From the NCBI GenBank assembly GCA_964430875.1, contig CAYSHP010000007.1, forward strand, positions 1,736 to 65,735: DNA of 64,000 nt, written 5' to 3'. Shown one piece after another: positions 17,674 through 62,174 of the stretch. Source of the stretch: an uncultured Halanaerobiales bacterium (GTDB lineage: Bacteria > Bacillota > Halanaerobiia > Halanaerobiales > M55B127). How positions within the stretch are numbered: the first letter of the stretch is position 1; each line of letters opens with the position of its first letter. The translations under genes were made by a program, and so were the position numbers. Under the pieces are notes generated by a model. It saw only the letters and a program-made list of their open reading frames with translations, did not search any database and was not told where the DNA came from.

Positions 17674-17708
17674 TGAAAAATCGGCAATAATTTTACTTAT
17701 TGCCGATT
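17674..17708 (-). terminator. Intrinsic terminator downstream of the PHP gene
   Basis: Minus strand AUCGGCAAUAA-GUAAAA-UUAUUGCCGAU followed by UUUUUC. Confidence 0.7.
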
Positions 17709-17749
17709 AATTAAAATTATCTCAATATATCTTAAATATACTCAATTTT

Positions 17750-18469: not shown

Positions 18470-18577
18470 TTTATTCACTCCTGTATATTACAATTTAACC
18501 TATTATTATTTGAATAATAATTTTTATCAAATAATAGGTAGCTTTTTTGATTTCATCTTTGTCGATAGTAACTCAAT

Positions 18578-22680: not shown

Positions 22681-22699
22681 CAAATACCTCCTTTTTAAG

Positions 22700-39685: not shown

Positions 39686-40708
39686 TTATAACTTTCTCTT
39701 AAAGATTTCTGCTGCTTCTAAAATATCCTCTCTATTTACATCTAGATGTGTTACAGCTCTTAGTTTATCATGTAAAACACTAACTCTTAAACCATCTTCT
39801 AATAACTTTTCAGCAAACTGAGCTGAATTTTGCCCTTTTATCTTAAATATAACAATATTTGTATCCACAGTCTCGGGATCAATCTCTACTCTATCTAATT
39901 CAGCTAACTTCTCTGCTAACAGTTTTGCATTTCCATTATCTACCTTTAATCTTTCAAGATTATTTTCAAGAGCATAGATTCCACCGGCTGCAATGATACC
40001 AGCCTGACGCATAGCTCCCCCTAATCTCTGTTTCCAATACCGAGCTTCATTAATAAACTCACTTGATCCCGCCAATACTGAGCCAACAGGTGCTCCTAAT
40101 CCTTTACTTAAATCAAACCAAACCGAATCAAAGTTAGCGGCATATTTTTTTGCAGAAATACCAGTTGCTGCAACTGCATTAAAAAGCCTTGCTCCATCCA
40201 TATGGGTTTTTAAACCCAGTTCATGAGCTCTTTCGGTAAGCTTATTTATTAATTTAAGCGGCCAAACTCTGCCTCCACCTAAATTAGAGGTTTGTTCAAT
40301 TGATAAAACCTTACTCTGTGGGTCATGATAATCTTTAGTCCTAACTGCCTTTTCAAACTGATCTAATTGAAAAATACCTTTTTCACCTTCTAAACCCCGA
40401 ATGGTAGCCCCACTTATGACAGCCGTAGCTCCGCCTTCATAATGAATAGGGTGAGCACTTTGATCCATAATAACCTCATCACCAGGATTACAGTGAACAG
40501 CAAAAGAAATTTGGTTAGCCATCAATCCTGAAGGTAGATAGACTGCTTCTTCTTTACCTAAAAGTTCAGATGCCATTTCTGTTAATTTATTTACACTAGG
40601 ATCTTCAAATAACTGTTCATCACCGACTTCAGCTTCAGCCATGAATTTTCTCATCTCATCTGAGGGTCTTGTACCAGTATCACTAAATAAATCAATCTTT
40701 ATTTCCAT
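39686..40708 (-). CDS. ltaE: Low-specificity L-threonine aldolase (PLP, beta-eliminating lyase fold)
   Basis: The start is moved to ATG at 40708 (GGAGAGG 8 nt upstream). Motifs: DLFSDTGTRP, VYLPSGLMANQ, and a FDLSKGLGAP PLP-Lys region. Confidence 0.82.
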   Translation of the reverse strand: MEIKIDLFSDTGTRPSDEMRKFMAEAEVGDEQLFEDPSVNKLTEMASELLGKEEAVYLPSGLMANQISFAVHCNPGDEVIMDQSAHPIHYEGGATAVISGATIRGLEGEKGIFQLDQFEKAVRTKDYHDPQSKVLSIEQTSNLGGGRVWPLKLINKLTERAHELGLKTHMDGARLFNAVAATGISAKKYAANFDSVWFDLSKGLGAPVGSVLAGSSEFINEARYWKQRLGGAMRQAGIIAAGGIYALENNLERLKVDNGNAKLLAEKLAELDRVEIDPETVDTNIVIFKIKGQNSAQFAEKLLEDGLRVSVLHDKLRAVTHLDVNREDILEAAEIFKRKL

Positions 40709-40722
40709 AAATTTCACCTCTC

Positions 40723-41040
40723 CTAAATTAATGTGAAAATATATAAATATAACATACCTAAAAATACTGTAGTAAAGATGCTCCTTGTAAAATATGCAGT
40801 GATAAAAGTGGGTATTGCAGCTAATAGATAATGATTACTCAAAGATATATCAACTGCTCCTTCTGTAATAAAAAGAGCTGGAGCTAATAATGATGCAAGA
40901 ATAGCTGGACCTACAAACTTTAAAATTCTAACTAAAATATCAGGAATTTTAACCTTTGAAAGAAGAGTTACCGGTAACATTCGAGGAATATATGTTACTA
41001 AAGTCATACCCAATATCATTAATATATATTTAGATTGCAT
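40723..41040 (-). CDS. azlD: AzlD-family branched-chain amino acid transport protein
   Basis: 105 aa, 4 TM segments. Overlaps azlC by 11 nt. Confidence 0.8.
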   Translation of the reverse strand: MQSKYILMILGMTLVTYIPRMLPVTLLSKVKIPDILVRILKFVGPAILASLLAPALFITEGAVDISLSNHYLLAAIPTFITAYFTRSIFTTVFLGMLYLYIFTLI

Positions 41041-41734
41041 TTTCTATTACCACCCCTGCTACTGCTGCAGTTACTGTTGCCACTATTATATTCCAATTTC
41101 CCGGTAAAATAAAGTAAAAAACAATTGATAGTAATGCAGCCATGATGGAAACTACTATATCCATTTTTTCATTGATCTGTAAAATAAGTAAGATTATAAA
41201 CATAGCGGGTAGGACAAATCCAATCACAGGAATTTCAAAGTTTAATATATACCTGCCAATAATCACACCGGCCAGTGAACTAAAAACCCAGCCCAGGTAA
41301 GCACTTAAACCCATTGCTAAAAAGAAAATTCCTTTATTTTCCTCTTCATCTTTTATAAGGGTATTACCTAAAGCATAAGATTCATCAGTTATCACAAAGC
41401 CAATAATAGGAAGCAACTTTTGAGGGGTATTTTTGAAATGTAAACTTAAAGATGCACTCATTAAAATATGCCTAAGATTTACCAAAAAAGTAGTCATAAC
41501 AATTGGGATAAGAGCTGCTTGAGCAGTTAACATATTTACTGCTATAAGTTGAGATGACCCTGCAAAAACAAAAATAGACATACCAACGATAAGGTAAGGA
41601 GATAAGTCAGTCTGCAAAGCCAAAATCCCATAGCTGATTCCAATTGGCATATAACCTAAGATAACTGGTATTGATTTTTTAAAACCAGATATAATACTTT
41701 TTTTGTAGTTCAAAATAAAAAACTCCCTTCCCAT
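41030..41734 (-). CDS. azlC: AzlC-family branched-chain amino acid exporter
   Basis: 234 aa with FAGSSQ and NLRH motifs. Confidence 0.85.
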   Translation of the reverse strand: MGREFFILNYKKSIISGFKKSIPVILGYMPIGISYGILALQTDLSPYLIVGMSIFVFAGSSQLIAVNMLTAQAALIPIVMTTFLVNLRHILMSASLSLHFKNTPQKLLPIIGFVITDESYALGNTLIKDEEENKGIFFLAMGLSAYLGWVFSSLAGVIIGRYILNFEIPVIGFVLPAMFIILLILQINEKMDIVVSIMAALLSIVFYFILPGNWNIIVATVTAAVAGVVIENAI

Positions 41735-41739
41735 TAATA

Positions 41740-42507
41740 TTATATTTCGGGAAGGGCTATCTCAATTCCTCTTGCTTTTTCATTAATTTTTATATCAATT
41801 CCGTAAGCATTACCCAGATTACGGCCAGTCATTATCTCATTGGTATCCCCATCTGCCATTATTGAGCCATCTTTAACAATGATTACTCGGTCACAATACT
41901 TTAAGGCAAGATTAGGATCATGCAAAGCCATAATTACTCCGGTATTACTGTTCCGTGTTAATTTTTTAATTTCTCTCATTAAGAGATTCTTATTTTTAAA
42001 GTCAAGATGGGAAGTAGGTTCATCCATGATTAAATAGCCCGTATCCTGCATAAGGGCTCTAGCAATTAAGATTAGTTGTTTTTCACCACCACTTAGCTGA
42101 TTATACTGTCTATCAGCCAGGTATTCAATATCCAACTTTTTAAGTATCTTAAGAGCTCGCTCATAATGTTTTTGTCCAGGCATCTTTCCAAAACCCAGAT
42201 AGGGGGTTGCGCCCATTGTAACTACATCCAGGACTCTATAGGAAAAAACCACTGAATGCTCCTGGGGTACCATACTAACATATTGAGCAATCTGCCTTTG
42301 ATTTAATTCATCTAAATCAGTTTGATCTATCTTTATTTTTCCTTCGTCTTTTTCTAAAACTCCATTTAAACATTTTAAAATAGTTGTTTTACCAGAACCA
42401 TTAGCACCCAAAAGGCAGGAAAACTCCTGCCTTTTGACCCTGAAGTTTATGTTATTGATGGTTTTAACTTTATTATATGAAAACCCTAAATTTTTAACTT
42501 CTAACAT
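41740..42507 (-). CDS. Type-II ABC importer ATPase (FepC/BtuD/MolC-like)
   Basis: 255 aa. GANGSGKTT, LSGGEKQ, LIMDEP and H-loop HD. Confidence 0.9.
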   Translation of the reverse strand: MLEVKNLGFSYNKVKTINNINFRVKRQEFSCLLGANGSGKTTILKCLNGVLEKDEGKIKIDQTDLDELNQRQIAQYVSMVPQEHSVVFSYRVLDVVTMGATPYLGFGKMPGQKHYERALKILKKLDIEYLADRQYNQLSGGEKQLILIARALMQDTGYLIMDEPTSHLDFKNKNLLMREIKKLTRNSNTGVIMALHDPNLALKYCDRVIIVKDGSIMADGDTNEIMTGRNLGNAYGIDIKINEKARGIEIALPEI

Positions 42508-42524
42508 ATTTACACCTTCTATTT

Positions 42525-43532
42525 CTATAGGTTGCTTCCACCTAATTCTTGATAACTTTGTTCATATAAAGTATTGTAATATTCATTAACTATTTTTTCA
42601 ATATCTAGATCGTCATACATTTCAGGATATAATTTTTCAGCTAACCAGACAATCCCTAGATAAGAAGAAGGACTTGGAAAATCCCAAGGTTCAACTTTAG
42701 AGGGAAATCTATAAATATTCTCATTTTTAACAGCTTTAAGCTGTTGTAATTCTGGTCGGTTTGATAGATCTTCTATAGTACCACTATAATATTGTGAAAC
42801 TACAATTACATCTGGATTCCATTTAATTAATTCTTCTAAAGAGGTTTTTATAAATCCTGTTTTTACTTCTTTAGCAGGATTAATACCCCCTGCTAATTCG
42901 ATCATGCTGGTCTGTAACATATTCTTGCCAACTGTATCAAATAAATCTGAATTTGCAAAGTATACTTCTTTCCTGTCAATAATTTCATTTGTATTATCTA
43001 CTATCTTAAGTATTTTATTATATTGATCTATTACCTCTTCAGCTCTTTTCTCAGCATCTAAAGCTTTTCCTAAAATTCTGGTAGTTTCCTTGATTTGAGC
43101 ATAACTTTCAGGCACTATTATAATTGAAGCTATACCAAATTCTTTTAATTTCTTGGCAACCTTAGGTCCATCATTGTAGGGAAATAAAATTACTAAATCA
43201 GGATCTACTTCAATGATCTGTTCTAAGTTTAAACCATGTCTTTTCGAACCTACATTTGGAAGTTTTTCTCCTTCATATAATTTTTGGAACAAGGAAATCT
43301 TTTCAAAACTTAGATCAGAAGCTACTAATCTATCTTGAGCATTAAGGCAAAATACAAATTGAGTTGCAGAACGATATGTTGTCACTATTCTATTTACTTC
43401 ATCTGGTACTTCAACTTTTCTACCTGTCATATCAGTGACCAGCTTCCCGGCAAAAGCAGATGAAGTGACCATTAAACCTATGACTAATACCATTGTTATG
43501 ATTATTGCAAATTTTCTAGAATAATTTTTCAA
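42525..43532 (-). CDS. Class-III periplasmic binding protein (FecB/BtuF/MolA-like)
   Basis: 335 aa. TTG start after AAGGAGG. SPase-I signal (SSAFA/GK). PDLVI and NPDVIVV motifs of the PF01497-type fold. Confidence 0.85.
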   Translation of the reverse strand: MKNYSRKFAIIITMVLVIGLMVTSSAFAGKLVTDMTGRKVEVPDEVNRIVTTYRSATQFVFCLNAQDRLVASDLSFEKISLFQKLYEGEKLPNVGSKRHGLNLEQIIEVDPDLVILFPYNDGPKVAKKLKEFGIASIIIVPESYAQIKETTRILGKALDAEKRAEEVIDQYNKILKIVDNTNEIIDRKEVYFANSDLFDTVGKNMLQTSMIELAGGINPAKEVKTGFIKTSLEELIKWNPDVIVVSQYYSGTIEDLSNRPELQQLKAVKNENIYRFPSKVEPWDFPSPSSYLGIVWLAEKLYPEMYDDLDIEKIVNEYYNTLYEQSYQELGGSNL

Positions 43533-43555: not shown

Positions 43556-43579
43556 CGTTATTTGTAACCTCATATAACG
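43556..43579. promoter_or_regulatory. ModE-type operator-like inverted repeat
   Basis: CGTTATTTG-N6-CATATAACG (8 of 9 positions symmetric) lies 24-47 nt upstream of the binding-protein start codon. It resembles the remembered E. coli ModE site pattern CGnTATAT-N6-ATATAnCG. An overlapping ATAACGTTAT palindrome lies at 43574-43583. Confidence 0.5.
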
Positions 43580-43964: not shown

Positions 43965-44567
43965 CTAATCATATTTGTTTTTATAATAAAGGTAATCATC
44001 ATAGTAATCTAAGTCTATGATTACCTTTTGGTTATCAATAGGATAATACTCAACTAAGTCTTTATGTTCTTCAATAAATGGTTTTAATCCCATCGGACCT
44101 TCTAACTTTTTCATTTCAGATAAGTATTTTGTACTAATAATCACCGGATGGCCCGGTTTATCATTATAAATAGGCATTATTATCTCAGAGGATGATTTTT
44201 CAAACTCACTTATAATATTATCAAATATATCTGGTGTAATCAATGGTTGATCTCCCAAAAATATTACCAAGTTTTTTGTGTTATTTGATAAATTATTAAT
44301 ACCCACTTTTAAACTACTGCTCATACCTCTGGTAAAATCAGGATTTTCTTTGATTCTAAAGCGGTTATCATCATAGTAATCTATTTTCTTTTTAACTCTC
44401 TCTGCTTCAGCACCTAAGACCACCCTGATCTCATCATCAATATATTCACTAGCTAATACATTATCAATAACTGTTTCCAGTATTGTCTTATCTTTCCAGG
44501 GTAACAGTTGTTTTAATTTTCCCATTCTATCCGCTTCACCAGCGGCTAATATAATAGCTGTATACAT
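43965..44567 (-). CDS. MobA/MocA-like molybdenum cofactor nucleotidyltransferase
   Basis: The ORF is 43965..44663. The start is moved to ATG at 44567, giving MYTAIILAAGEADRMG..KQLLPW, the NTP_transf_3 signature. This removes the overlap with the permease. Confidence 0.8.
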   Translation of the reverse strand: MYTAIILAAGEADRMGKLKQLLPWKDKTILETVIDNVLASEYIDDEIRVVLGAEAERVKKKIDYYDDNRFRIKENPDFTRGMSSSLKVGINNLSNNTKNLVIFLGDQPLITPDIFDNIISEFEKSSSEIIMPIYNDKPGHPVIISTKYLSEMKKLEGPMGLKPFIEEHKDLVEYYPIDNQKVIIDLDYYDDYLYYKNKYD

Positions 44568-44591
44568 AATAACCATCCTCTTGATTATAAA

Positions 44592-44611
44592 GGGGAGGAA
44601 ATTTCCTCCCC
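44592..44611. other. Perfect 20-nt GC-rich palindrome (intercistronic hairpin)
   Basis: GGGGAGGAAATTTCCTCCCC lies between the permease stop and the MocA start. On the minus strand only UUUAUAAU follows it. Confidence 0.4.
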
Positions 44612-44628
44612 CTTTTATATTTATATCT

Positions 44629-45951
44629 TTATAAAAACAAGAAGTATGCAATAAATACTGCACCTAATACATAAACTAATGTATTTACTTCTTTTCCTCT
44701 ACCAGTAAATAACTTAATTAGAGGGTAAATAATAAAGCCTAAAGCAATTCCATTAGAAATTGAATATGTTAAGGGCATTGCGATCATAGCAATAAAGGCT
44801 GGTAATACTTCAGTGAAATCATCCCAGTCTAAGTCACTTACATTAGTCATCATCATAGTACCTACTATAACTAAAGCAGGGGCAGTAGCTGCACCGGGCA
44901 CTAGACCAATTAATGGTCTAAAGAACAATGCTAAGAAAAATAGGATAGCAGTAACTACACCTGTTAAACCTGTTCTACCACCTTCAGCAACACCGGCAGC
45001 AGACTCAATATATGTTGTAACTGTACTGGTACCAAAGAGCGCACCACCAGTAGTACCAATCGCATCAGCCAAGAGAGCATTACTTGCTTTTGGTAGGTTA
45101 CCATCTTCATCAATATAGCCAGCCTGTTTACTTACTCCTACCAGAGTACCGGCTGTATCAAAAAGGTCAACAAATAAGAATGATAATAAGACTCCTACCA
45201 TACTTAATCTTAAAGCTGAAGCAATATCTAATTGGAATAAAACTTGGTTCCAATCAGCCATCTTAGGCATTGCAAAAATACCATTAAAAGCTGGGGTTAC
45301 ACCATTTGTCCAGCCAAAAGCTGTCGCTATTAAGATACCCCAGAGGAGTGATCCTTTTATTTTAAGGGAATGTAAAATTCCAGTTACTATTAAACCAATC
45401 AGGGCAACTAAAGCAGGCCCTGATAATAATGAACCCATACTTACTAAAGTAGCTTCATCATTAACAACGATTCCAGCATTTTGTAGTCCGATAAAAGCAA
45501 TAAATAAACCTATACCAGCACTAATACCAGTTTTTAGATTCATTGGTATAGAGTTAACTATCTTTTTCCGGACCGGCGTCACACTTAAGACAATAAAGAT
45601 TATACCTTCTATAAATATTATCCCTAAAGCGGTCTGCCAGGATACACCCATACCAATAACTACAGAATAAGCAAAAAATGCATTTAAGCCCATACCTGAA
45701 GCTAGTGCAAATGGATAATTTGTTAAGAAAGCCATCGCCAAAGTACCTAAAATAATACCAGCAATTGTAGCAATAAATACTCCATTAAAAGGCATCCCTG
45801 CTTCACTAAGGATTGATGGGTTTACAAATATAATATAAGCCATGGTTAAAAAGGTTGTAAATCCAGCAATTACCTCAGTCTTAGGATCGGTATTGTTCTC
45901 TTTAAGTTTAAATACCTTTTCCAGGAAGCCTCCGTCATTCATTTCGTTCAT
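44629..45951 (-). CDS. NCS2/AzgA-type adenine-guanine-hypoxanthine permease
   Basis: ATG at 45951 (RBS AAGGAGGG). TEVIAGFTTFLTMAYIIFVNP is the hallmark N-terminus of PbuG/GhxQ-type permeases. Confidence 0.9.
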   Translation of the reverse strand: MNEMNDGGFLEKVFKLKENNTDPKTEVIAGFTTFLTMAYIIFVNPSILSEAGMPFNGVFIATIAGIILGTLAMAFLTNYPFALASGMGLNAFFAYSVVIGMGVSWQTALGIIFIEGIIFIVLSVTPVRKKIVNSIPMNLKTGISAGIGLFIAFIGLQNAGIVVNDEATLVSMGSLLSGPALVALIGLIVTGILHSLKIKGSLLWGILIATAFGWTNGVTPAFNGIFAMPKMADWNQVLFQLDIASALRLSMVGVLLSFLFVDLFDTAGTLVGVSKQAGYIDEDGNLPKASNALLADAIGTTGGALFGTSTVTTYIESAAGVAEGGRTGLTGVVTAILFFLALFFRPLIGLVPGAATAPALVIVGTMMMTNVSDLDWDDFTEVLPAFIAMIAMPLTYSISNGIALGFIIYPLIKLFTGRGKEVNTLVYVLGAVFIAYFLFL

Positions 45952-46043
45952 CAAATTCCCTCCTTATTAATGATAAGTCTTAATTTAGATAAATATTGAA
46001 GATAATCTTACACTTATTTTCCCTTTTAACACCTCCTCTTAAA

Positions 46044-47759
46044 TTAATCGCCTACTCCTAGGGAAACAAATTTATTCTCATCAATATCAAATAAACCTTG
46101 GTCAGTTATTTTTAAAGAAGGAATTACTGGTAAAGCCATGAAAGACAAGGTCATAATGGGACTCTGACGAGTTACCCCCATCGAATATACCTTTTCTTTC
46201 ATCTTCTTTAATTTTTTTGCTACTTCAGGTATTGAATCTTTAGACATCAAACCGGCAATTTCTAAAGAAAGACAGTCTAATAGTTTACCATCTTCAACTA
46301 CAGCAATACCACCCTGTAATTTCTCTATTTCTTTGACTGCTTTATACATATCTTTTGAATTTAAGCCAACCACAATAATATTATGTGAATCATGGCCAAT
46401 AGAAATAGCTATTGCTCCTTTACGGAGTCCAAAACCTTTGAGTAATCCTAAACCAACATTCCCGGTTTTTTTATGTCTTTCAACTACAGCTATTTTTACT
46501 AAGTTATTAGCAACTAAATCATCAATTTTTACTTTCTCATCAAATTTTATAATTTCTTTATCAGTTACTATTTGATCTTTTATTAAGCTCATCACACGAT
46601 ACTCTTTAAAATCGGGTAAATTGAAGTCCTGTTTTTTTAACTTACCAATATTAACTGATTTAAATATTTTTTCCGATTTTCCTTCTTTTATTTCAGGTAA
46701 ATTTACAATTAAGCTCTCATTTTCTGCTACAAGTCGACCATCTTTAAAGACTTTTTCTATATTAAAGTCTTTTAGATTATCAAGAATAACTAAATCTGCT
46801 TTATAGCCAGGCGCAATCGCACCCACATTATTTAAACCCAAAGCCTTAGCAGAATTAATAGTCGCTAATTTGATAGCCCTTAACGGTGAGATACCATTTT
46901 GAATTGCCTTTTTGATCACAAAGTTAATATGACCGTTTTCATATAAGTCTTCAGGGTCCCTGTCATCTGTGGCAAATAAAAATCTAGATAAATTACTATT
47001 ATTTACAGCCGGTAGTAAGTTCACGAGATCTCGTGTTACTGAGCCCTCTCTGATCATAACATACATACCCTTTGTTACTTTTTCAATTGCTTCCTCAGGT
47101 TCAGTACATTCATGATCTGCCATTATACCCCCAAGCAGATAAGCATTAAGTGCTTTGCCGCTGACCCCAGGGGCGTGCCCATCGATGAATTTATCACCAA
47201 TCATATCTATTTTTCCCCAAATGTTTTTATCTCCTTTGATCACTCCAACAAAATCCATTACTTCACCTAAACCAAAGATCCCTTCTTTGTCTTTAAGTTT
47301 AGCTAATTTATCGGCTGTTAACACAGCTCCAGAAGTTTCATTAGAGGTAGCAGGTACACAGGAGGGAAGCATTAAATTAAAGTTCCAGGGTAGCTTTGTC
47401 CCGCGGTCTAGAAAATATTTGATTCCATCTAAACCCGCTACATTAGCAATTTCATGTGGATCTGCAAACACAGTTGTGGTGCCTCTTGGCACTATCCAAG
47501 CTGCAAATTCATCCACTCTAACCATAGCACTTTCAAAATGAAGGTGCCCATCTATAAAACCAGGTGCAATAATATTTTCTTCAAAATCAATCTCCTTTAC
47601 CCCTTCATAATCACCAATACCAATTATCTTACCATCTGCAATTGCAATATCTTCTCTAATTAAGCGTTCATTAAACACATCAACTATTCTTCCGTGCTTT
47701 AAGACTAATTCCGCGGGTATTTCACCCTTAGCCATTTTTAAAATTCTATTGTTAATCAA
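46044..47759 (-). CDS. ade: Adenine deaminase
   Basis: 571 aa. PGFIDGHLHFES, DPHEIANV, DGHAPG and HDSHNIIVVG motifs. Confidence 0.9.
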   Translation of the reverse strand: MINNRILKMAKGEIPAELVLKHGRIVDVFNERLIREDIAIADGKIIGIGDYEGVKEIDFEENIIAPGFIDGHLHFESAMVRVDEFAAWIVPRGTTTVFADPHEIANVAGLDGIKYFLDRGTKLPWNFNLMLPSCVPATSNETSGAVLTADKLAKLKDKEGIFGLGEVMDFVGVIKGDKNIWGKIDMIGDKFIDGHAPGVSGKALNAYLLGGIMADHECTEPEEAIEKVTKGMYVMIREGSVTRDLVNLLPAVNNSNLSRFLFATDDRDPEDLYENGHINFVIKKAIQNGISPLRAIKLATINSAKALGLNNVGAIAPGYKADLVILDNLKDFNIEKVFKDGRLVAENESLIVNLPEIKEGKSEKIFKSVNIGKLKKQDFNLPDFKEYRVMSLIKDQIVTDKEIIKFDEKVKIDDLVANNLVKIAVVERHKKTGNVGLGLLKGFGLRKGAIAISIGHDSHNIIVVGLNSKDMYKAVKEIEKLQGGIAVVEDGKLLDCLSLEIAGLMSKDSIPEVAKKLKKMKEKVYSMGVTRQSPIMTLSFMALPVIPSLKITDQGLFDIDENKFVSLGVGD

Positions 47760-47813
47760 TTTAATCCCTCCCTCCCTTATACTTATTATCTATTATATTC
47801 TTATATGTTTTAA

Positions 47814-48902
47814 TTACTCTAATTTTAATGCACCAAAGTTACAACGGGTGATACATAGTCCACAGCCTGCACATTTATCAGGATCGATGACAATATAGTC
47901 TCTACTTTCATTATATGAAATAGCATCATATACACAACTGGTGATACATAAGCCACAAGTGGTACAGTTTTCTTCAATTACTGTTGGTACAACTGTATTA
48001 AAGTTAGCTTCTTCTTTAACCACCTGAGCAGTTAAACCTTTAATATCATTTACACTTTCATATCCATTTTCATCTAAGAATTTATTTAATTCTTCATTTA
48101 TTTTCTTATAGACACTAGGACCATTTACAATAGCTTCTGTACAAACCTGTACAGCAGATGCTCCAGCCATAAACATCTTGGCAGCTCTTAAGCCGCTATC
48201 AATACCACCTACACCAATAACAGGAATATCAACATTATTGGAGGCTTGGTAAACTGCTCTTAAGGCCAGTGGGAATATAGCTTCACCTGATAGCCAGCCA
48301 AATCCATTGTCACTACCCATTACTGGTTTTCCAGTTTTGGGATCAATATCTAAGGTTGGGCCAAAGGAATTAATCAATACAATACCATCTGCACCAGCTT
48401 CTTCAGCCGCTTTAGCAAATTCTGGTATGTCAATTCCCGGACTTAATTTAACGAAAACTGGAATATCGACTTCATCTTTAGCTGCTTTAATACTTTCTTC
48501 CATGGGAGTTGTGTCATCACCTAAATAGTGAGTAGAAAGTTCTAAAGCATCTGCATACTTTTCTACCTTTTTAGCTAACTCTCTAATTTGATCTTTTGTA
48601 TAACCAATACCTGCTATAACGGGTAAGCCTAATTCTCTAATCACAGGATATTCCTCTTCTAGCCAATGTTCTGGAGTTAGTTCGGACCATAGTTCAGTAT
48701 TTAAGAAACCACCTTTTATTCTAGCCATGTTTGGTCTCGGTACTTTAGCAGCCGTAGTAGAGATAGTCTTTGTAACGATTGCACCAGCCCCACCATTTTT
48801 GGCTCTTTTTGCTGCTTTTGCATCTTTAACTGGCGGACCGGCCGCCGGCATAACGGGATTATCTAATTCAATTCCTGCAAATTCTACTTTTAAATCAGCC
48901 AT
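47814..48902 (-). CDS. DHOD/DPD-like FMN oxidoreductase with C-terminal 2x[4Fe-4S] ferredoxin domain (PreA-like)
   Basis: ATG at 48902 (RBS GAGGAGTG). The TIM-barrel DHOD family N-terminus reads FAGIELDNPVMPAAGP. C-terminal CTTCGLCITSC and CAGCGLCITRC motifs. Confidence 0.85.
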   Translation of the reverse strand: MADLKVEFAGIELDNPVMPAAGPPVKDAKAAKRAKNGGAGAIVTKTISTTAAKVPRPNMARIKGGFLNTELWSELTPEHWLEEEYPVIRELGLPVIAGIGYTKDQIRELAKKVEKYADALELSTHYLGDDTTPMEESIKAAKDEVDIPVFVKLSPGIDIPEFAKAAEEAGADGIVLINSFGPTLDIDPKTGKPVMGSDNGFGWLSGEAIFPLALRAVYQASNNVDIPVIGVGGIDSGLRAAKMFMAGASAVQVCTEAIVNGPSVYKKINEELNKFLDENGYESVNDIKGLTAQVVKEEANFNTVVPTVIEENCTTCGLCITSCVYDAISYNESRDYIVIDPDKCAGCGLCITRCNFGALKLE

Positions 48903-48907
48903 CAATA

Positions 48908-49486
48908 TCACTCCTCATTTTTATTAATTTTCATAATTGTCTTTCTTAATTCTTGATAAATATCTTCAAAAACAGATTCATGGTTTTTTTCTTTAACCCT
49001 ATACATACTTATATCATTTCTGCTTCTTATCTTATCTAAAAACTTGTTATGCTCATCTTTGATTACAGCCAATACTGGTTTTTTACTGTCCATAATTTCA
49101 AACACTTTTTCTTGAAATTTTAAAGCCTTCAGCTCAAACCTCCCAAGTTCATCCATGACTAATATATCTCGAAATTTGCTTCCAATTTCTAAAAACTGAA
49201 CTCCTTTATCATCAAAAACCTCGGGATTAACTTGCCAATCTTGGGAAGGATGGTCTCTTTTCGCAAAAATCTGACATTTCTTTTTAAACCCTGCTGAATC
49301 TTTTCCCTGCCAATGGTAATAGTAATCCAGAGGATCTGTTAGGTAAAAACTTAACCACTGATTTATATTGCCTGTTCGACCTACTACAAATCCTCCGGGT
49401 TTTAGATTCAATTTATCTAAAATTCTTTTTACAATAGTACTTTTACCGACATACTTATCTCCGGTAATCAATATATTGTTTGGCAT
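48908..49486 (-). CDS. P-loop NTPase, THEP1/PF03266-like
   Basis: 192 aa. ILITGDKYVGKST (Walker A) and ILVMDELGRFEL (Walker B region) parallel Aquifex THEP1 (IIITGEPGVGKTT, IIIDEIGKMEL) as I remember it. The start overlaps the Mo-subunit stop. Confidence 0.7.
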   Translation of the reverse strand: MPNNILITGDKYVGKSTIVKRILDKLNLKPGGFVVGRTGNINQWLSFYLTDPLDYYYHWQGKDSAGFKKKCQIFAKRDHPSQDWQVNPEVFDDKGVQFLEIGSKFRDILVMDELGRFELKALKFQEKVFEIMDSKKPVLAVIKDEHNKFLDKIRSRNDISMYRVKEKNHESVFEDIYQELRKTIMKINKNEE

Positions 49487-50475
49487 TAATTATTTTTTTC
49501 CTCTAATGCATCTAATATTTTTTCTGGTGTAATCGGTAGACTTTTAATTCTAACACCGATTGCATCATAAACTGCATTTGCCACGGCAGGACTAGCAGCA
49601 ATTAAAGTAGGTTCACCTACTCCTTTAGAGCCAAAAGGTCCATCAGAATCTTTATTTTCAATTAAGGTACTTTCAAACTCGGGAATATCTTTAATACTGG
49701 GAACCAGGTAATTAGTCATATCGGCATTTAAGGTAATACCATCTTTAATCACTTGATCTTCCATTAAAGCCATACCTAATCCCTGAACTGTACCACCTTC
49801 AATTTGACCGTGTACATTTTGCGGATTAATAGCTTTTCCTACATCTAAAGCCGTATAGACATTCATTACTTCAATAATACCAGTATCGGTATCTACTTCT
49901 ATATCCATCACCTGAGTCATAAAAGTATAGGCTACATAGTTTTTCTCAGTTTGGCCTGTTTTCTTATCAGGGGCATAAGTTTTAGGAAAAAAGCTTGCTT
50001 CAGCACTCAGTTTTTTTCCTTTTTCTTCAATTATGTCTGCTAATTGCCAATAAGTTATCTTTTTATCCTCATCACAAGCGTATAATTCACCCTCCTTAAC
50101 AGTTAATTCTGGATGGTTACTGTTAAAATAAAGGCTGCCATGGTGATAGATTTTACCCATAACTTCTTCGGCCGCTTCTCTTACTGCATTACCGGAAAAG
50201 AAGGTTTGTCTACTAGCAGAAGTAGAACCGGAATTTTTTGCATTGTGAGTATCCTGACCGACAATTTCAATATAGGAAGGATCTATTTTTAAGACTTCCG
50301 CAGCAATCTGAATCATTGTTGTTAAAAAGCCTTGACCCATATCTGCACCAGCTGTTCTTAATTTAATCTTCTTGTCTGGGGTGATTTCTATTTCAGCAAT
50401 GGAATGATCGGGAAAACCCTCACCATATCCAAAGCCGAACATTATTGAGGCCATACCTCTTCCTTTTTTTCTCAT
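49486..50475 (-). CDS. Molybdenum hydroxylase, C-terminal half of the Mo-pterin subunit (NdhM-like)
   Basis: 329 aa. Aligns to residues about 440-765 of the full-length paralogue at 57168..59465 and contains GVGEPTL. It has an ATGA overlap with the N-terminal half and a GGGAGGGGGAG RBS. Confidence 0.9.
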   Translation of the reverse strand: MRKKGRGMASIMFGFGYGEGFPDHSIAEIEITPDKKIKLRTAGADMGQGFLTTMIQIAAEVLKIDPSYIEIVGQDTHNAKNSGSTSASRQTFFSGNAVREAAEEVMGKIYHHGSLYFNSNHPELTVKEGELYACDEDKKITYWQLADIIEEKGKKLSAEASFFPKTYAPDKKTGQTEKNYVAYTFMTQVMDIEVDTDTGIIEVMNVYTALDVGKAINPQNVHGQIEGGTVQGLGMALMEDQVIKDGITLNADMTNYLVPSIKDIPEFESTLIENKDSDGPFGSKGVGEPTLIAASPAVANAVYDAIGVRIKSLPITPEKILDALEEKNN

Positions 50476-51791
50476 TTGTTAATCTCCCCCTCCCATTTCG
50501 ACAGATTAATTGCTTCTTCTATTGTTCTTTTAGTATTTACACTTTTCCCTAACATCTGACCATTGGGAGTAATTGAACCGGTATCATAAGCATTTTGATA
50601 TCTAAATTGAGCAGGATCCATATTTAACTTCTGAGCAATTATATCAATTTGTGATTCATAAGCAAATGCCATCTGGGTTGTACCAAAACCGCGCATAGCA
50701 CCACCATAGGTGTTATTGGTATAAACTGCATAAGAAGTACCACGTACATTGGATACATTATATGGACCTGTACAGTGATACATTCCTTTATGAACTACAG
50801 CCGGGCCACTAGAAGCATAAGCTCCGGTATCTCCGATTACAAATACCTGCCAGGCAGTTAGATATCCATCATTTGTTACACCTGTCTTAGCTCTAATGGT
50901 AAGAGGGTGTCTTTTTGATTGAGAAATCATTGATTCTTCTCTTGTATATTCTAATTTAACCGGTCTATTTACACGCATTGCTGCTAAAGCAAGGTGAATA
51001 TGAACTGAAACATCTTCTTTTTTACCAAAAGCTCCCCCAATTGCAGCATTTATTATTCTAATCTTATCTTTCGACATATTTAAAGATTGAGCAACATCAG
51101 CTTGGGTATCATGTAACCACTGAGAAGCAGTCCAAATCTTTATTTCACCAGATTTTTCATCATAGACTGCATAGCCTGCCTCATTTTGTATAGGAAGTTG
51201 GTCGATATGTTGAGTCTGATAATCGTTTTTTACTATAAAATCAGCTTCTTCAAACCCTTTATCTACATCACCTTTTTCTAGATGATGATCAACTAAGATA
51301 TTTTTGCGGTTTACATCGGGACTTAAATATTCTGTACATAAATCATCTAAATCCTCATGAATGGCAGGAGCGTCTTTTTCGATGGCTCGATGTGCGTTAT
51401 CAATAACTTCTAATTTTTCTACTTCTACTTCGATTTTTTCTCTTGCTTTTAAGGCAGCTTCGGCTGTTTCAGCTACAACTATGGCTAAAGCATCTCCCAT
51501 AAATCTCATTTTTTCACCAATTTTAATTAAAACAGGTTGGTCTTTAATGATTAGACCAAATTTATTGAGATCTGGGTAGTCTGCTTCTGTAATGATATCT
51601 ACGACGCCCTTAACTTTCTTAGCCTTACTAATATCTAAATCTTTTAAAATCGCATGAGGATAAGTTGCTCTTTTGACTTTAACATGTAAATAATCATCAA
51701 ACTTTAAATCAGATGGGTAATTAGCTTGTCCGGTGACTTTATCCTTTGCATCTACTTTTAAGATGTCTTCTCCTACATATCTTTTAGACAT
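50472..51791 (-). CDS. Molybdenum hydroxylase, N-terminal half of the Mo-pterin subunit (NdhL-like)
   Basis: The start is moved to ATG at 51791, giving MSKRYVGEDILKVDAKDKVTG. Contains GGAFGKKE and GGAMRGFG motifs. Confidence 0.9.
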   Translation of the reverse strand: MSKRYVGEDILKVDAKDKVTGQANYPSDLKFDDYLHVKVKRATYPHAILKDLDISKAKKVKGVVDIITEADYPDLNKFGLIIKDQPVLIKIGEKMRFMGDALAIVVAETAEAALKAREKIEVEVEKLEVIDNAHRAIEKDAPAIHEDLDDLCTEYLSPDVNRKNILVDHHLEKGDVDKGFEEADFIVKNDYQTQHIDQLPIQNEAGYAVYDEKSGEIKIWTASQWLHDTQADVAQSLNMSKDKIRIINAAIGGAFGKKEDVSVHIHLALAAMRVNRPVKLEYTREESMISQSKRHPLTIRAKTGVTNDGYLTAWQVFVIGDTGAYASSGPAVVHKGMYHCTGPYNVSNVRGTSYAVYTNNTYGGAMRGFGTTQMAFAYESQIDIIAQKLNMDPAQFRYQNAYDTGSITPNGQMLGKSVNTKRTIEEAINLSKWEGEINK

Positions 51792-52266
51792 TATCTTCAC
51801 CCCCACTTTGCATCTTGTGGGATGCCTCTTTGACAGCATCAACTATCTTGACATATCCGGTACATCTACATATATTACCGGATAAACCTCTTTTGATTTC
51901 TTCATCACCTGGATTTATATTATCATCGAGTAACTTTTTGCTGGACATAATCATTCCGGGTATACAAAAACCACACTGTACTGCCCCGGTTTCAATAAAG
52001 GACTGCTGGATTGGGTGTAACTTCTCTTTATCTCCTAATCCTTCTACAGTCTGTATCTCAGCACCATCAGCCTGGGGAGCTAATACCAGACAAGAAGCTA
52101 CCACTTTATTATTCATGATTACTGTACAAGCACCACATTCACCTTTTCCACAACCTTCTTTAGTTCCTGTTAGTCCAAGATCTTCTCTTAAAAGGTCTAG
52201 TAAGCGGGTATGTGGTTTAACATCTACTTCTCTTTTTTGACCATTAACTGTTAATTTAATTTTCAT
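51784..52266 (-). CDS. Molybdenum hydroxylase [2Fe-2S] subunit
   Basis: 160 aa. CGKGECGACTV and CGFCIPG..CRCTGY. Confidence 0.95.
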   Translation of the reverse strand: MKIKLTVNGQKREVDVKPHTRLLDLLREDLGLTGTKEGCGKGECGACTVIMNNKVVASCLVLAPQADGAEIQTVEGLGDKEKLHPIQQSFIETGAVQCGFCIPGMIMSSKKLLDDNINPGDEEIKRGLSGNICRCTGYVKIVDAVKEASHKMQSGGEDNV

Positions 52267-53168
52267 TGGTTAATCACCTCATTTAGGGCACTTTTAGTTA
52301 TATTAAAAGCGACCTGTCTGCGGTATTTAGCTGTACCTCTAATATCATCAATCGGTGATATTTTATCTGAAACTATCTGTGCTATTTCTTCTATATTTAC
52401 ATTATTAATTTTTTTGGCAAGTAATTCATCTTCTGCTTTTTTAATTCTAAGTGGTGTTGGAGCAGCTGAACCCACACATATTCTACTTTCTTTAATTTTT
52501 TTATCTTCATCAAACACAATATTAAAAGCTAAACTTATTGATGAAATAACGAGGGCTTTTCTTTTACCTACTTTAACCCAGGCCCCTCTGTACATTTCAT
52601 CTCTTAAAGGAAGAATTATTTTTTCAACAATTTCTCCCTTTTTTAATACATTTTTCTTGGGCCCTGTAAAAAATTCATTGGCATCTACAATACGTTCCCC
52701 ATCTTTTGAAATCAGTTTTAATTTAGCATTATAGACTAAAAGGGGTGGTAGTAAATCACCGGCTGGTGATGATGTAACAATATTCCCACCAATAGTACCC
52801 CTACTTCTAATCTGGGGTGAACCGACATCAGCCGCTGCCTGTTGAATGACAGGGAAAAGTTCTTTGATCTTATCTAATTTATAGAGTCTTTCATGAGTGA
52901 CCATAGAACCAATTTCGACCTTATCATCATAAATCTTGATCTCTTTAAATTCACTTACCCAGTTTAAATCGAGCCATCTATCAACTTTATATAGATTATT
53001 ATAATGTTCAACTAAAAGATCAGTACCTCCCGCTATTACGGTAAGGGCATCCTCATAATCTCTCAATACCTGCATTAATCCTTCTTTTGTTTGTGGCCTA
53101 AAGTAACTGTTAAAATCTTCTCCAGAAGTCTTTGGCCTGTTGTTTGCATTTTTTGATTGTTTTTTCAT
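52263..53168 (-). CDS. Molybdenum hydroxylase FAD-binding subunit
   Basis: 301 aa. IAGGTDLLV and TIGGNI motifs. The only in-frame start gives a 59-nt overlap with ssnA. Confidence 0.88.
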   Translation of the reverse strand: MKKQSKNANNRPKTSGEDFNSYFRPQTKEGLMQVLRDYEDALTVIAGGTDLLVEHYNNLYKVDRWLDLNWVSEFKEIKIYDDKVEIGSMVTHERLYKLDKIKELFPVIQQAAADVGSPQIRSRGTIGGNIVTSSPAGDLLPPLLVYNAKLKLISKDGERIVDANEFFTGPKKNVLKKGEIVEKIILPLRDEMYRGAWVKVGKRKALVISSISLAFNIVFDEDKKIKESRICVGSAAPTPLRIKKAEDELLAKKINNVNIEEIAQIVSDKISPIDDIRGTAKYRRQVAFNITKSALNEVINQ

Positions 53169-54447
53169 AATCTAAAACTTTCACCTCCTGGTTTTCCATC
53201 AAAACATGTCCATTTACAATTGTACTATCAACTAAACCCCCATTGAAACCAAATAGGATATGGTAAAAATAATTTTCATCGGTTATCGGAGTCGGAGATT
53301 TATAATCTACAACTATAATATCAGCGGGCACATCTTTTTTAATAATACCTAACTCTTTATCAAAATATTGTTTTGCTATCTTTCGATTATTTTCAAAAGC
53401 AATTTTATTAATATCTTCTCCACCTAGATTAGGATCTAAATTGTTATGCTTTTGTAAAAGATCGGCAACATTGATACTTTCAAACATGTCTGTGGTATAA
53501 CCATCAGTACCAAGTCCTATTGTTAAATCCTTATCTAAAGCTTTTCTTAAGTTAATTGCACCTACTGCATTTCCCATATTGGATTCAGGGTTGTGGATTA
53601 AAAACACATTATTATCCGCAAGTATTTCATATTCACTTTCAGATAAATGTACTCCATGAATTGCCAGTGAATCTTCTCTTAATATATTTAACTTATCAAA
53701 ACGATCTGCTAGATTCTTATAACCGCGTTTTTTACTATCTTCTTCATCTACTTTGCCTTCAGCTGCATGAAAGTGTGTTGGTGTATTGGTGCTTTCAGCA
53801 AGTTCAGCAACCTCTCTTAAAGTTTTATCACTTAAAGTAAAGGAGGCATGTAGACCAATGGCGGGAGTAATAAAATCGCTATTTAGCTTCCTAGCACGCT
53901 TAATAAAACGCTCATTTTCTTTGATTGCCTGTTTTGCTTTTTGTTCACCATGACGGTCAGAAATCTCATAAGATAGACTGGTTCTAAGTTTAGACTTTAC
54001 AACTGCCTCTGAGATTATATCAAGACTGTTTTCGATATATCCATAACTTGCATGGTGGTCAAAAATAGTCGTTGTACCACTTCGTATACTTTCAACTAAA
54101 GCATATATCGTACTGTAATAGATATCTTCACTATTTAGGGTTTCATCTAAACGCCACCATAGTTTTTCTAATATTTCTTCAAAATTTTGTGGTGGTAGCT
54201 CGGTTTTTAAATCCATACCACGTGCAAAAGTACTGTAAAAATGCATATGAGAATTTATCATTCCAGGCATGATTACTTTACCTTTTACATCTTTAAAGTC
54301 TGCTTCCTGATATCTAACCTTTAAATTATCAGTTTTACCATAATCTTTTATAATACCTTCATCAATTAATACAGCACCATCATTAATAACAGGGTCATTT
54401 GAATTTAAGGTGATTAATACACCATTTCCATAAAGTTTCAAGTTCAA
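53110..54447 (-). CDS. ssnA: SsnA-type amidohydrolase (putative aminohydrolase of the purine cluster)
   Basis: 445 aa. SHMHFYS, LWWRLD, FDHHAS, HAAE, GTDG, YKSPTP and a C-terminal FWRRF parallel E. coli SsnA as I remember it. Confidence 0.85.
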   Translation of the reverse strand: MNLKLYGNGVLITLNSNDPVINDGAVLIDEGIIKDYGKTDNLKVRYQEADFKDVKGKVIMPGMINSHMHFYSTFARGMDLKTELPPQNFEEILEKLWWRLDETLNSEDIYYSTIYALVESIRSGTTTIFDHHASYGYIENSLDIISEAVVKSKLRTSLSYEISDRHGEQKAKQAIKENERFIKRARKLNSDFITPAIGLHASFTLSDKTLREVAELAESTNTPTHFHAAEGKVDEEDSKKRGYKNLADRFDKLNILREDSLAIHGVHLSESEYEILADNNVFLIHNPESNMGNAVGAINLRKALDKDLTIGLGTDGYTTDMFESINVADLLQKHNNLDPNLGGEDINKIAFENNRKIAKQYFDKELGIIKKDVPADIIVVDYKSPTPITDENYFYHILFGFNGGLVDSTIVNGHVLMENQEVKVLDYEKTIKKCKQQAKDFWRRF

Positions 54448-54453
54448 CCCTCC

Positions 54454-55821
54454 TTATTTACTTAAAAGATCTTGCGCAATCTGATTGTGTTTCTTTATTA
54501 CATTATATTCTTTAATAGTTGTTAATTCTCCTTTTCGAACTACAACTTTACCGTCCACTATATTGTAATCTACTTCTTGAGTAGTGCCTGTATTTACTAA
54601 TGCTTCAACCGGATCACTTTGCCCACCTGCAAAACCTAACCTATCACTTCTAACCATGAAAAGGTCAGCAGCTTTACCTTCTTCAATACTGCCTATTTCT
54701 GGTTGGTTAAGTACATCTCTACCTCCATTAGTGGCAATAGATAATACATCTTCAGAAGATATACTTTTAATACCATGAATCAATTTATGCAGTAGATAGG
54801 CAAGCTTTAACTCTAAAATCATATTAGAGGCATCATTACTAGCACTACCATCAACTGCTAGACTAACCGGTACATTCTTTTTAAGCATATACGGAATCTT
54901 AGCTGCTCCCGAAGATAACTTCATATTTGAAGCAGGGCAGTGGGAAACACCCGTACCTGTTTCGGCTAGTTTTACTATTTCAAATTCATTAAAATGCACT
55001 CCATGGGCAAACCAGACATCTTTACCAATCCAACCCCATTCTTCCATCAAATCTAAGGGTCTTTTACCAAAGGTATCAACACAGTATTGGTTTTCATCTT
55101 GAGTTTCAGCAAGATGAGTATGGCTTAATACATTGTTTTTTCTAGCCAATTTTATTGATTCAACCATTAGGTCTTCTGAAACAGAAAAAGGTGAACACGG
55201 TGCTAATACTACCCTCTGCATTGCATATTTGCTATCATCATGGAATTTATCAATTACTCTCTGGGAATCATTTAAGATTTCATCTTCACTTTGTACAACC
55301 GAAGCAGGTGGTAATCCACCATCTTCTTCACTTAACGACATACTACCCCTGCTACCATGAAATCTAATACCGATTTCTTTAGCAGCTTTAAACTGATAAT
55401 CCATTAAATTATCAGGTTGGCTTTCGGGAAAGACATAAAAATGATCCACACTGGTAGAACAACCTGTCTTTAAAAGTTCTGCTGATGCTAATAATGTACT
55501 ATAGTATACTGCTTCCGGTGTTAGGTTAGACCAGATTGGATAAAGGAATTTAAGCCAGTTAAACAGCTCAACTCCTTGTGCTTCAGGAATATTGCGGGTT
55601 AAGGTCTGGTAGAAGTGATGGTGGGTATTTATTAAGCCGGGAAAGGCGAAATAGTTCCCGGCTTCAATTATCTCATCAACTTCATCTTCGCCTATATCAA
55701 TATTATCATCAATTGTTTTTATTTTTTTATCTTCAATTAAGATATCAGTGTTTTTATAACGGTTTCTTTTTTCATCCATCGTGATTAACTCTTTAATGTC
55801 TCTAATTAAAATTTTAGACAT
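54454..55821 (-). CDS. COG0402 amidohydrolase, guanine/8-oxoguanine deaminase-like
   Basis: The start is moved to ATG at 55821 (GGAG inside the upstream stop region), giving MSKILIRD. Motifs: NTHHHFYQTLTR, HTHLAE, HGVH, AVDGSASND. Confidence 0.82.
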   Translation of the reverse strand: MSKILIRDIKELITMDEKRNRYKNTDILIEDKKIKTIDDNIDIGEDEVDEIIEAGNYFAFPGLINTHHHFYQTLTRNIPEAQGVELFNWLKFLYPIWSNLTPEAVYYSTLLASAELLKTGCSTSVDHFYVFPESQPDNLMDYQFKAAKEIGIRFHGSRGSMSLSEEDGGLPPASVVQSEDEILNDSQRVIDKFHDDSKYAMQRVVLAPCSPFSVSEDLMVESIKLARKNNVLSHTHLAETQDENQYCVDTFGKRPLDLMEEWGWIGKDVWFAHGVHFNEFEIVKLAETGTGVSHCPASNMKLSSGAAKIPYMLKKNVPVSLAVDGSASNDASNMILELKLAYLLHKLIHGIKSISSEDVLSIATNGGRDVLNQPEIGSIEEGKAADLFMVRSDRLGFAGGQSDPVEALVNTGTTQEVDYNIVDGKVVVRKGELTTIKEYNVIKKHNQIAQDLLSK

Positions 55822-55822
55822 T

Positions 55823-56299
55823 TTATTCACTCCTGTCTTTGTTAACAACACTTTCAATCGCTTCTATGATTTGTTGATAACCGGTACATCTACAGAGATT
55901 ACCCTCTATAGCAGTTTTAATCTCTTCTCTATCAGGATCCGGCTTTTCATTGAGTAATGCCTTTGCCGACATTAACATACCGGGTGTACAAAAACCACAC
56001 TGTACGGCTTGATGGTCGATAAATGCTTCTTGTAAAGGATCTAGCTTACCATCGATCTCTAATCCTTCCACAGTTAAGACTTCACTGCCATCAATCTGGA
56101 AAGTGTAGACCATACAGGAGTTAACCGCTTTGCCATCTAAAACTACTGTACAGGCTCCACATTCACCTATACTACAGCCTTCTTTAACTCCTGTCAGGTG
56201 TAATCTGTCTCTTAAGGTATCAAGTAGTCTTTCATCTGACGGAACTTTTATATTATGTTCTTTGCCATTAACGGTTAAGGTTACATTAACTTCTTCCAT
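55823..56299 (-). CDS. Xanthine dehydrogenase-type [2Fe-2S] subunit
   Basis: 158 aa. CSIGECGACTV and CGFCTPG..CRCTGY. Confidence 0.95.
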   Translation of the reverse strand: MEEVNVTLTVNGKEHNIKVPSDERLLDTLRDRLHLTGVKEGCSIGECGACTVVLDGKAVNSCMVYTFQIDGSEVLTVEGLEIDGKLDPLQEAFIDHQAVQCGFCTPGMLMSAKALLNEKPDPDREEIKTAIEGNLCRCTGYQQIIEAIESVVNKDRSE

Positions 56300-56301
56300 T
56301 A

Positions 56302-59465: not shown

Positions 59466-59577
59466 TAAAACACCTCCATTTTTTAATCTTAAACAGAACT
59501 TTCTTATTTCCTGTTTTCTTTTTATATCACTTTTAATTACTAGTTAGTTTATATGTTTAGTCATATATCTCAATTTC

Positions 59578-59586
59578 ATTATATCA
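59578..59586 (-). promoter_or_regulatory. Extended -10 promoter element (TGATATAAT) upstream of the xdh-type operon
   Basis: The minus strand reads GTGTGATATAAT about 110 nt upstream of the Mo-subunit ATG. The -35 element is poor (TTAAAA). Confidence 0.45.
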
Positions 59587-59623
59587 CACTAAAAACAATA
59601 TTTTTAATATTTCCCGTCTTTTC

Positions 59624-60991: not shown

Positions 60992-61033
60992 ATTAACTCT
61001 CCTTTTTATAATATTCAAAAATTTTTTAAATGG

Positions 61034-61060
61034 AGAAAAAACGGAGATGATATCTCCGCT
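61034..61060 (-). terminator. Intrinsic terminator after ygeW, about 45 nt upstream of the permease start
   Basis: Minus strand CGGAGAU-AUC-AUCUCCG followed by UUUUUUCUCC. Confidence 0.8.
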
Positions 61061-61170
61061 TTTATTTGTATGAAATTAATGATAATGGTAAGTAAACTTT
61101 AAGTAGTATTTTTTAGAAGATTATTGCTATTAAAGTAATCTTTTTGTATAGAAAATATTTATATTAACGA

Positions 61171-62154: not shown

Positions 62155-62174
62155 CTTATTATTCCTCCTTGAAA

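Follow-up and report, generated by a model that had tools for sequence, protein, structure and literature searches.

The 64-kb window analysed here (64,000 nt of contig CAYSHP010000007.1, assembly GCA_964430875.1, from an uncultured Halanaerobiales bacterium) carries the genes for a substrate-binding protein (SBP) and an ATPase of a type-II importer of the ATP-binding cassette (ABC) class, followed by genes for AzlC, AzlD and a threonine aldolase-like enzyme, and it has no gene for the FecCD-family permease with which such proteins work. An earlier reading of this DNA made without database searches (the sequence-only reading) offered three accounts: that the permease is encoded elsewhere, that the system is a remnant, or, speculatively, that the ATPase works with a non-canonical membrane partner. 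Our comparison with related loci makes it very probable that this is an ordinary MolABC-like type-II importer whose operon has been split, with the permease gene at another genomic site in this clade of Halanaerobiales. With the permease moved elsewhere, its absence from the locus is a matter of gene order and not of a new kind of transporter.

All of the genes at the locus lie on the minus strand and are described in the order of transcription; their coordinates are collected in Table 1. The order that had been proposed (ModE-like regulator, class-III SBP, type-II ATPase, AzlC, AzlD, aldolase) was borne out by the Pfam and NCBIfam calls, and the reported absence of a FecCD-family permease across the window was likewise upheld. 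No FecCD match was found by Pfam in 47 of the 49 open reading frames (ORFs) of at least 150 aa (all but those at 17132-17653 and 17750-18478), and six-frame tblastn of the 64-kb window with 7 diverse FecCD queries revealed neither a gene nor a pseudogene (best E-value 0.13). The SBP matches PF01497 with an E-value of 9e-27 over residues 49-279. The top NCBIfam matches of the ATPase are to type-II ATPases of the heme, corrinoid and FecE kinds, and its motifs are all intact: Walker A (GANGSGKT), Q-loop (VPQE), signature (LSGGE), Walker B (LIMDEPTSHLD) and H-loop (ALHD).

Relatives were collected by scanning one genome per species for SBP homologues, which gave 39 loci that were parsed with phmmer seeds; the SBP of the window belongs with Halanaerobiales metagenome-assembled genomes (MAGs). 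The canonical order SBP-FecCD-ATPase is present at about 25 loci, and it is the order in Natroniella acetigena, Halanaerobium hydrogeniformans and Petrotoga, whose SBPs are 51-55% identical to that of the window. The window itself belongs to a permease-less clade that it forms together with 10 species-level MAGs (loci L008-L015, L037 and L038; SBPs 69-82% identical to that of the window), and locus L001 (71%) has the same permease-less order, including AzlC, AzlD and the aldolase. The window and the canonical loci have a context in common, consisting of a MocA-like gene, a short HTH_1 regulator, XdhC, YqeC, NTPase_1 and xanthine dehydrogenase, and a MocA/YgfJ-like transferase gene is the upstream neighbour in nearly all related loci. 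The permease is adjacent to the orthologous binding protein in relatives of the clade, a result that the sequence-only reading had itself named as refuting its proposal and as a sign of local gene loss.

Two further loci are informative about the arrangement. L020 (57% identity) reads MocA - ModE-N - SBP - FecCD - ATPase - two small ORFs - AzlC - AzlD - aldolase, with 835 nt between the ATPase and AzlC genes. L040 (JARRCS010000006.1, 9124-13121; 60% identity) reads MocA - SBP - AzlC - AzlD - aldolase; it is without FecCD, ATPase and ModE-N genes, has the operator half only, and is a further step in the scattering of the transporter genes. Several canonical operons have an extra gene between FecCD and ATPase (L022, 4633-5370; L035, 11765-12553), which encodes either a DUF364/DUF4213 'putative heavy-metal chelation' protein or an S-adenosylmethionine methyltransferase.

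The in-operon FecCD of L020 was used as the query in a search for orphan permeases. It recovered a large set of 335-aa FecCD proteins, 59-63% identical to the query and several of them labelled Halanaerobiales bacterium, which are no further from it than are the in-operon permeases of other genera; the match of the orphan permease to Pfam FecCD has an E-value of 1e-89. Three of these proteins come from MAGs that also contain a permease-less locus: P0161 on JAIPEX010000001.1 (L047), with L011 on JAIPEX010000014.1; P0177 on JAGXLU010000003.1 (L069), with L013 on JAGXLU010000025.1; and P0242 on DATGCJ010000126.1 (L099), with L009 on DATGCJ010000009.1. L009 falls within the subclade of the window itself, to whose proteins its SBP is 82% and its ATPase 91% identical. 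The three MAGs represent three subclades, one of them the window's own, and by this phylogenetic bracketing we infer an orphan permease in the window's genome too. The flanks of the orphan gene are constant in more than 15 contigs, with the order purM/purN/purH - GFO_IDH_MocA oxidoreductase - Asp/Glu racemase - FecCD - (MoCF_biosynth) - GH65 - two EamA - PhoU_div - PHO4, and in none of these contigs is there an SBP or ATPase gene beside the FecCD gene. The MoCF_biosynth gene (157-169 aa, MogA/MoaB-like) is located 3' of the orphan FecCD gene in most sublineages.

The orphan permeases are orthologues of the in-operon ones. In neighbour-joining trees they are monophyletic and branch beside the in-operon permeases of L020, L017 and L024, the same position that the permease-less clade has in the SBP tree; in the ATPase tree this clade, recovered in 50/50 bootstraps, lies beside the neighbouring canonical group L022/L025/L029/L035. 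Among the three MAG pairs, SBP, ATPase and FecCD all point to one and the same pair of genomes as the closest.

Purifying selection on each of the three genes is strong. The ratio of nonsynonymous to synonymous substitution rates (dN/dS; Nei-Gojobori, pairs with unsaturated dS) is 0.07-0.14 for the SBP, 0.05-0.08 for the ATPase and 0.035-0.07 for the orphan FecCD, and the ORFs at the permease-less locus are intact in all 11 species, whose SBPs are up to about 30% different. The ATPase is the most conserved gene of the cluster when the window is compared with L008 by phmmer score ratio, and in L008-L010 it is 91-92% identical to that of the window, compared with 76-82% for the SBP. Canonical-operon ATPases have 78 columns with conservation of 85% or more, and at 72 of these the permease-less clade has the same residue; in the Q-loop/helical subdomain, which contacts the membrane subunit, 25 of 27 conserved columns are kept. 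Two SBP glutamates, E104 (in NLEQI) and E233 (in SLEEL), are 100% conserved in canonical and permease-less loci, and the RLPR motif of the permease (R59 and R62) is invariant in the orphan FecCDs. E72 and E202 of BtuF reportedly dock onto R56, R59 and R295 of BtuC, and we take the SBP glutamates and the RLPR arginines, by motif, to be the equivalents of these docking residues. The window supplies the class-III SBP, the docking glutamates and the intact BtuD/FepC/HmuV-type ATPase of a type-II importer, and the FecCD subunit is seen in three MAGs of the clade.

The ancestral arrangement would have been an SBP-FecCD-ATPase operon behind a ModE-type operator, close to genes for molybdenum-cofactor (Moco) maturation and xanthine dehydrogenase. 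In one Halanaerobiales lineage the permease gene would then have been cleanly removed from between the SBP and ATPase genes, leaving only the stretch with the ribosome-binding site (RBS) of the ATPase gene. In canonical operons the last codons of FecCD overlap the ATPase start, and the spacer of the permease-less clade, in which AGAAGGTG(T/A)AA..ATG is conserved, is like GAAAGTGGGTGGAATTAATG at that overlap. This resemblance suggests a deletion that spared the ATPase RBS, and the 17-nt spacer is probably what remains of the FecCD gene's 3' end after its deletion. The orthologous permease persists alone in the setting purH - oxidoreductase - Asp/Glu racemase - FecCD - (MogA-like Moco gene) - GH65, and the working transporter would be assembled from the two loci as (FecCD)2(ATPase)2 with the periplasmic SBP, whose two invariant glutamates would dock onto the permease at its RLPR arginines. 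The relocation could have proceeded by duplication followed by loss, or by direct transposition. Duplication with reciprocal loss predicts that the ATPase of another locus, L068, is the sister of the permease-less clade; it groups with L020, and the alternative placement appears in 1/50 bootstraps.

The operator upstream of the SBP gene is an inverted repeat, CGTTAT-N12-ATAACG, with one match in the window against 0.03 expected, and exactly one match is present just 5' of the SBP gene in each of 35 related loci, whereas the orphan-permease loci have no match. It has the 24-nt span of the Escherichia coli ModE consensus (ATCGnTATATA-N6-TATATAnCGAT, core CGnTATATA-N6-TATATAnCG; PMC545781) and agrees with this E. 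coli-derived consensus at 15 of the 18 specified core positions. The regulator is a ModE N-terminal DNA-binding domain alone, with no Mop/TOBE molybdate-binding domain, and it scores 60 bits (E-value 2e-16) against TIGR00637 ModE_repress, which is below the curated cutoff. This short ModE-N form adjoins the SBP gene in canonical and permease-less loci alike. We regard the locus as a putative ModE-operator-controlled operon with a ModE-family DNA-binding protein.

The PDB matches of the SBP are all class-III proteins. The first are 4ovk and 4hn9, uncharacterised structural-genomics SBPs that score above MolA of Haemophilus influenzae (HI_1472; 3psa/3psh, E-value 1e-32, aligned end to end); MolA is the top characterised match, and binders of nickel, iron, heme and B12 have E-values of 1e-21 or weaker. 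For the ATPase, the best PDB match with a single nucleotide-binding domain (NBD) is MolC (HI1470; 2nq2_C, E-value 2e-34), then 4g1u_C, with FhuC (7lb8) coming after BceA. This homology to MolA and MolC, the E. coli-type ModE box and the Moco-gene context together make molybdate or tungstate the best guess, and the predicted cargo is likely one of these two, for the molybdenum hydroxylases encoded nearby. The same cargo and the analogy with MolABC had been proposed in the sequence-only reading; both draw support from homology and context, and both are predictions. A further link to molybdenum is provided by L068 (Logan SRR28875795_4842, 657-10724), which has the order modA-modB-modC - MobB-like - moeA - moeA - moaA - FecCD - ATPase - moaC - MOSC - GH65. 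Its FecCD-ATPase pair belongs to the MolABC-like family described here and is located between moaA and moaC, beside modABC and moeA, with no adjoining SBP gene and with a GH65 neighbour as in the orphan-permease loci. The MoCF_biosynth gene next to the orphan permease in most sublineages is a second such link. The DUF364/DUF4213 or methyltransferase gene in sister operons hints that the cargo or its processing may involve more than a free oxyanion.

The sequence-only reading placed AzlC and AzlD where the permease should be. In a rival account the ATPase would drive AzlC/AzlD, a pair of secondary carriers of the LIV-E type (TC 2.A.78), instead of a FecCD permease. Canonical relatives have the permease between SBP and ATPase and not past the ATPase, so AzlCD is not in the position of the permease. 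What speaks for such a partnership is the ATPase-AzlC gap, which is 5-27 nt in 11/11 permease-less species and has no terminator, so that co-transcription is likely and AzlC is probably transcribed together with the ATPase. (A promoter and terminator scan of the operon was at chance level and uninformative.) The AzlC-AzlD-aldolase module is, however, kept in L020 and L040 as well as in the entire permease-less clade: in L020 it is downstream of a full SBP-FecCD-ATPase set, which makes AzlCD a neighbour and not a replacement, and in the ATPase-less L040 it comes straight after the SBP gene. Its position is thus tied neither to the ATPase nor to the loss of the permease, and in Halanaerobium loci AzlC is about 6 kb downstream. 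Compared with ATPases from canonical operons, the ATPase shows no change in its contact surface for the membrane subunit (25 of 27 conserved columns), selection acts on a cognate FecCD, which is present in the clade, and to our knowledge no ABC-coupled AzlCD has been described. We find the non-canonical partner barely credible; AzlC, AzlD and the aldolase would rather be an independent module that became the direct downstream neighbour of the ATPase by loss of intervening DNA. An alternative start of AzlC is an in-frame TTG 21 nt (seven codons) into the listed gene (41714-41734), with which the gap is 26 nt. This TTG lies about 8 nt 3' of a strong RBS (AAGGGAG), better placed than the RBS of the listed ATG, and AzlC has 227 aa in the gene calls of relatives and 234 aa as listed here; the TTG may be the real start.

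A decaying remnant, in which SBP and ATPase became functionless after the loss of the permease and are turning into pseudogenes, would agree with the absence of the permease gene from the locus, with the retention of the SBP only in the related lineage of L040, and with a 28-bp frameshift in the ATPase gene of one metagenome variant (L054). Both ORFs are nevertheless intact in 11 species with SBPs up to about 30% divergent, at dN/dS values of 0.05-0.14; the ATPase is more conserved than the SBP, the catalytic motifs and docking glutamates are all kept, and the orthologous permease elsewhere is under even stronger constraint. The selection analysis contradicts this account, and we give it very little credence. 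It is also highly improbable that the importer borrows a paralogous FecCD from another type-II system, such as one for cobalamin or an iron chelate, and that the orphan FecCD has a different role. Further FecCD systems can be present in genomes of this group (there are four more FecCD genes near the L024 locus, for example), and the ModE box is absent at the orphan permease, but by its place in the trees the orphan FecCD is orthologous to the in-operon permease, more than 15 contigs show it with neither an SBP nor an ATPase gene alongside, a Moco gene is linked to it, and in the three MAG pairs its closest genome pair is also that of SBP and ATPase. The account that holds up is the permease encoded elsewhere: three MAGs from the permease-less clade have an orthologous FecCD at a distant locus whose make-up is conserved.

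Several observations weigh against this split-operon explanation. The window's genome was covered over 64 kb alone and its own orphan permease was not seen, and MAGs are bins, for which 'same MAG' is strong yet not absolute proof of 'same genome'. The JGI sample that has the window's exact SBP (3300007537) also has a FecCD contig (L056), but this contig matches the JAGXLU species at 99.7% identity; several related populations (L071, L073 and L078) are present in the sample, so this permease is not attributable to the window's organism. No ModE box, exact or with up to 2 mismatches, was found at the orphan-permease promoter, and the simple co-regulation that would be expected of the SBP-ATPase and orphan-permease loci is apparently lacking. 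The DUF364 'metal chelation' gene inside some canonical loci leaves room for a chelated cargo. The variant at L054 (2026-2793; JGI 3300026172, Ga0209964_1001423) has an identical SBP (P0001) and an ATPase gene that matches exactly outside the gap, and its 28-bp deletion (gene nt 202-229, window 42279-42306) divides the ATPase gene into ORFs of 85 and 177 aa. The deletion may reflect a genuine inactivating variant within the population or a fault of assembly, and the frameshift could mean that the system is dispensable.

A modified form of the split-operon explanation has some claim, although we think it unlikely. SBP, ATPase, AzlCD and aldolase would be expressed from a Mo/W-responsive ModE-box promoter and the permease independently, near the MogA-like gene and after the purine-biosynthesis operon, so that the split would be regulatory, with two separate signals setting how much active importer is present. 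The cargo could also be, instead of free molybdate, tungstate or a DUF364-made chelated metal, devoted to the maturation of the purine-catabolic molybdenum hydroxylases.

Among known systems, the closest parallel is MolABC of H. influenzae (MolA HI1472, MolB HI1471, MolC HI1470), which shares the class-III SBP, the MolC-like ATPase, the FecCD-type permease and the link to molybdenum metabolism; in the Halanaerobiales clade the three genes are not contiguous and the permease is at a separate locus. Identity of the window SBP to MolA is low, 4ovk and 4hn9 being closer, and the cargo here is predicted. MolBC-A is a type-II, low-affinity molybdate/tungstate importer found alongside ModABC (PMC4031551, PMC4245157), and the present family similarly coexists with a ModABC-type system in the related lineage L068, as MolBC-A does beside ModBC-A (PMC4031551). 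The regulator of H. influenzae molABC is described as unknown (PMC4031551), whereas here the SBP gene is preceded by a ModE box of the E. coli type and by a regulator that consists of ModE-N only. The uncharacterised canonical operons of Halanaerobium, Natroniella and Petrotoga share with the window an orthologous SBP (47-58% identity), an orthologous ATPase, the ModE box and the MocA/ModE-N/XdhC/xanthine-dehydrogenase neighbourhood; they differ in having the permease between SBP and ATPase and, in some, the DUF364/DUF4213 or methyltransferase gene. Importers assembled from separate loci are known, as in Staphylococcus fhuCBG, which works with fhuD1/fhuD2 encoded elsewhere, and in systems that share the ATPases MsmK/MsiK. 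The component encoded apart in such systems is usually the SBP or the ATPase, whereas here the permease alone is separate, and SBP and ATPase are together behind the operator.

An ABC importer that looks incomplete in a genome window need not be a remnant or have an exotic partner; a neighbourhood survey, followed by a search with the nearest in-operon permease, located the missing subunit at another locus. From the comparison there also emerges a MolABC-like family, so far uncharacterised, that occurs in Halanaerobiales, Natroniella and Petrotoga and is tightly linked to the ModE box, to the MocA/XdhC/YqeC maturation genes and to xanthine-dehydrogenase-type enzymes. The family is a reasonable target for asking whether purine-degrading anaerobes obtain Mo or W through type-II oxyanion importers.

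Table 1. Features of the importer locus, in transcription order (window coordinates; PLP, pyridoxal phosphate).
Feature	Coordinates	Strand	Evidence and remarks
MocA/YgfJ-like molybdenum-cofactor cytidylyltransferase	43965..44663	-	Pfam NTP_transf_3 E 9e-32; TIGR03310 168.6 bits (cutoff 186)
Short ModE-type regulator, 121 aa	43597..43962	-	HTH_1 E 9e-11; TIGR00637 ModE_repress
ModE-box-like operator, CGTTATATGAGGTTACAAATAACG (minus-strand reading)	43556..43579		5' of SBP gene
Class-III (cluster A) SBP, MolA-like, N-terminal signal peptide, 335 aa	42525..43532	-	Pfam Peripla_BP_2
SBP-ATPase spacer, 17 nt	42508..42524	-	Holds ATPase RBS GAAGGTG
Type-II importer ATPase (MolC/BtuD/HmuV-like NBD), 255 aa	41740..42507	-	Pfam ABC_tran
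AzlC	41030..41734	-	Pfam AzlC E 2e-41; begins 5 nt past ATPase stop
AzlD	40723..41040	-	Pfam AzlD E 3e-26; 11-nt overlap with AzlC; AzlCD pair
Low-specificity threonine aldolase-like PLP enzyme	39686..40717	-	Beta_elim_lyase E 2e-92; NF041359 361 bits (above cutoff)

At the upstream end of the locus, the true start of the MocA ORF is probably about 30 codons further in than listed, near MYTAIILAAG. Within the 5' extension of the listed ORF there is a GC-rich hairpin followed by a T-run (44594-44612, minus strand), which suggests that the upstream permease gene ends there and that MocA starts further in. At the other end, a Bmp-type nucleoside ABC system is next after the aldolase.

A large purine/pyrimidine-catabolic island (46044-63416) is present upstream of the transporter locus. 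It contains two sets of xanthine-dehydrogenase-type Mo-hydroxylase genes (49486-53168, with a split MoCoBD subunit, and 55823-59465), an adenine deaminase and two further amidohydrolases (a fourth amidohydrolase is at 21292-22683), and one further Xan_ur permease, the second being just upstream of the transporter locus at 44629-45954. A DPD-like DHO_dh/4Fe-4S protein, NTPase_1, a carbamoyltransferase and an M20 peptidase are also encoded in the island. A signalling region at 2380-20968, unrelated to the transporter, includes genes for two GGDEF/PAS proteins, a MEDS-PAS-HD-GYP-like protein, CheA, two CheW, an MCP, an HTH-PAS-HD protein and a LonB/LonC-like protease.

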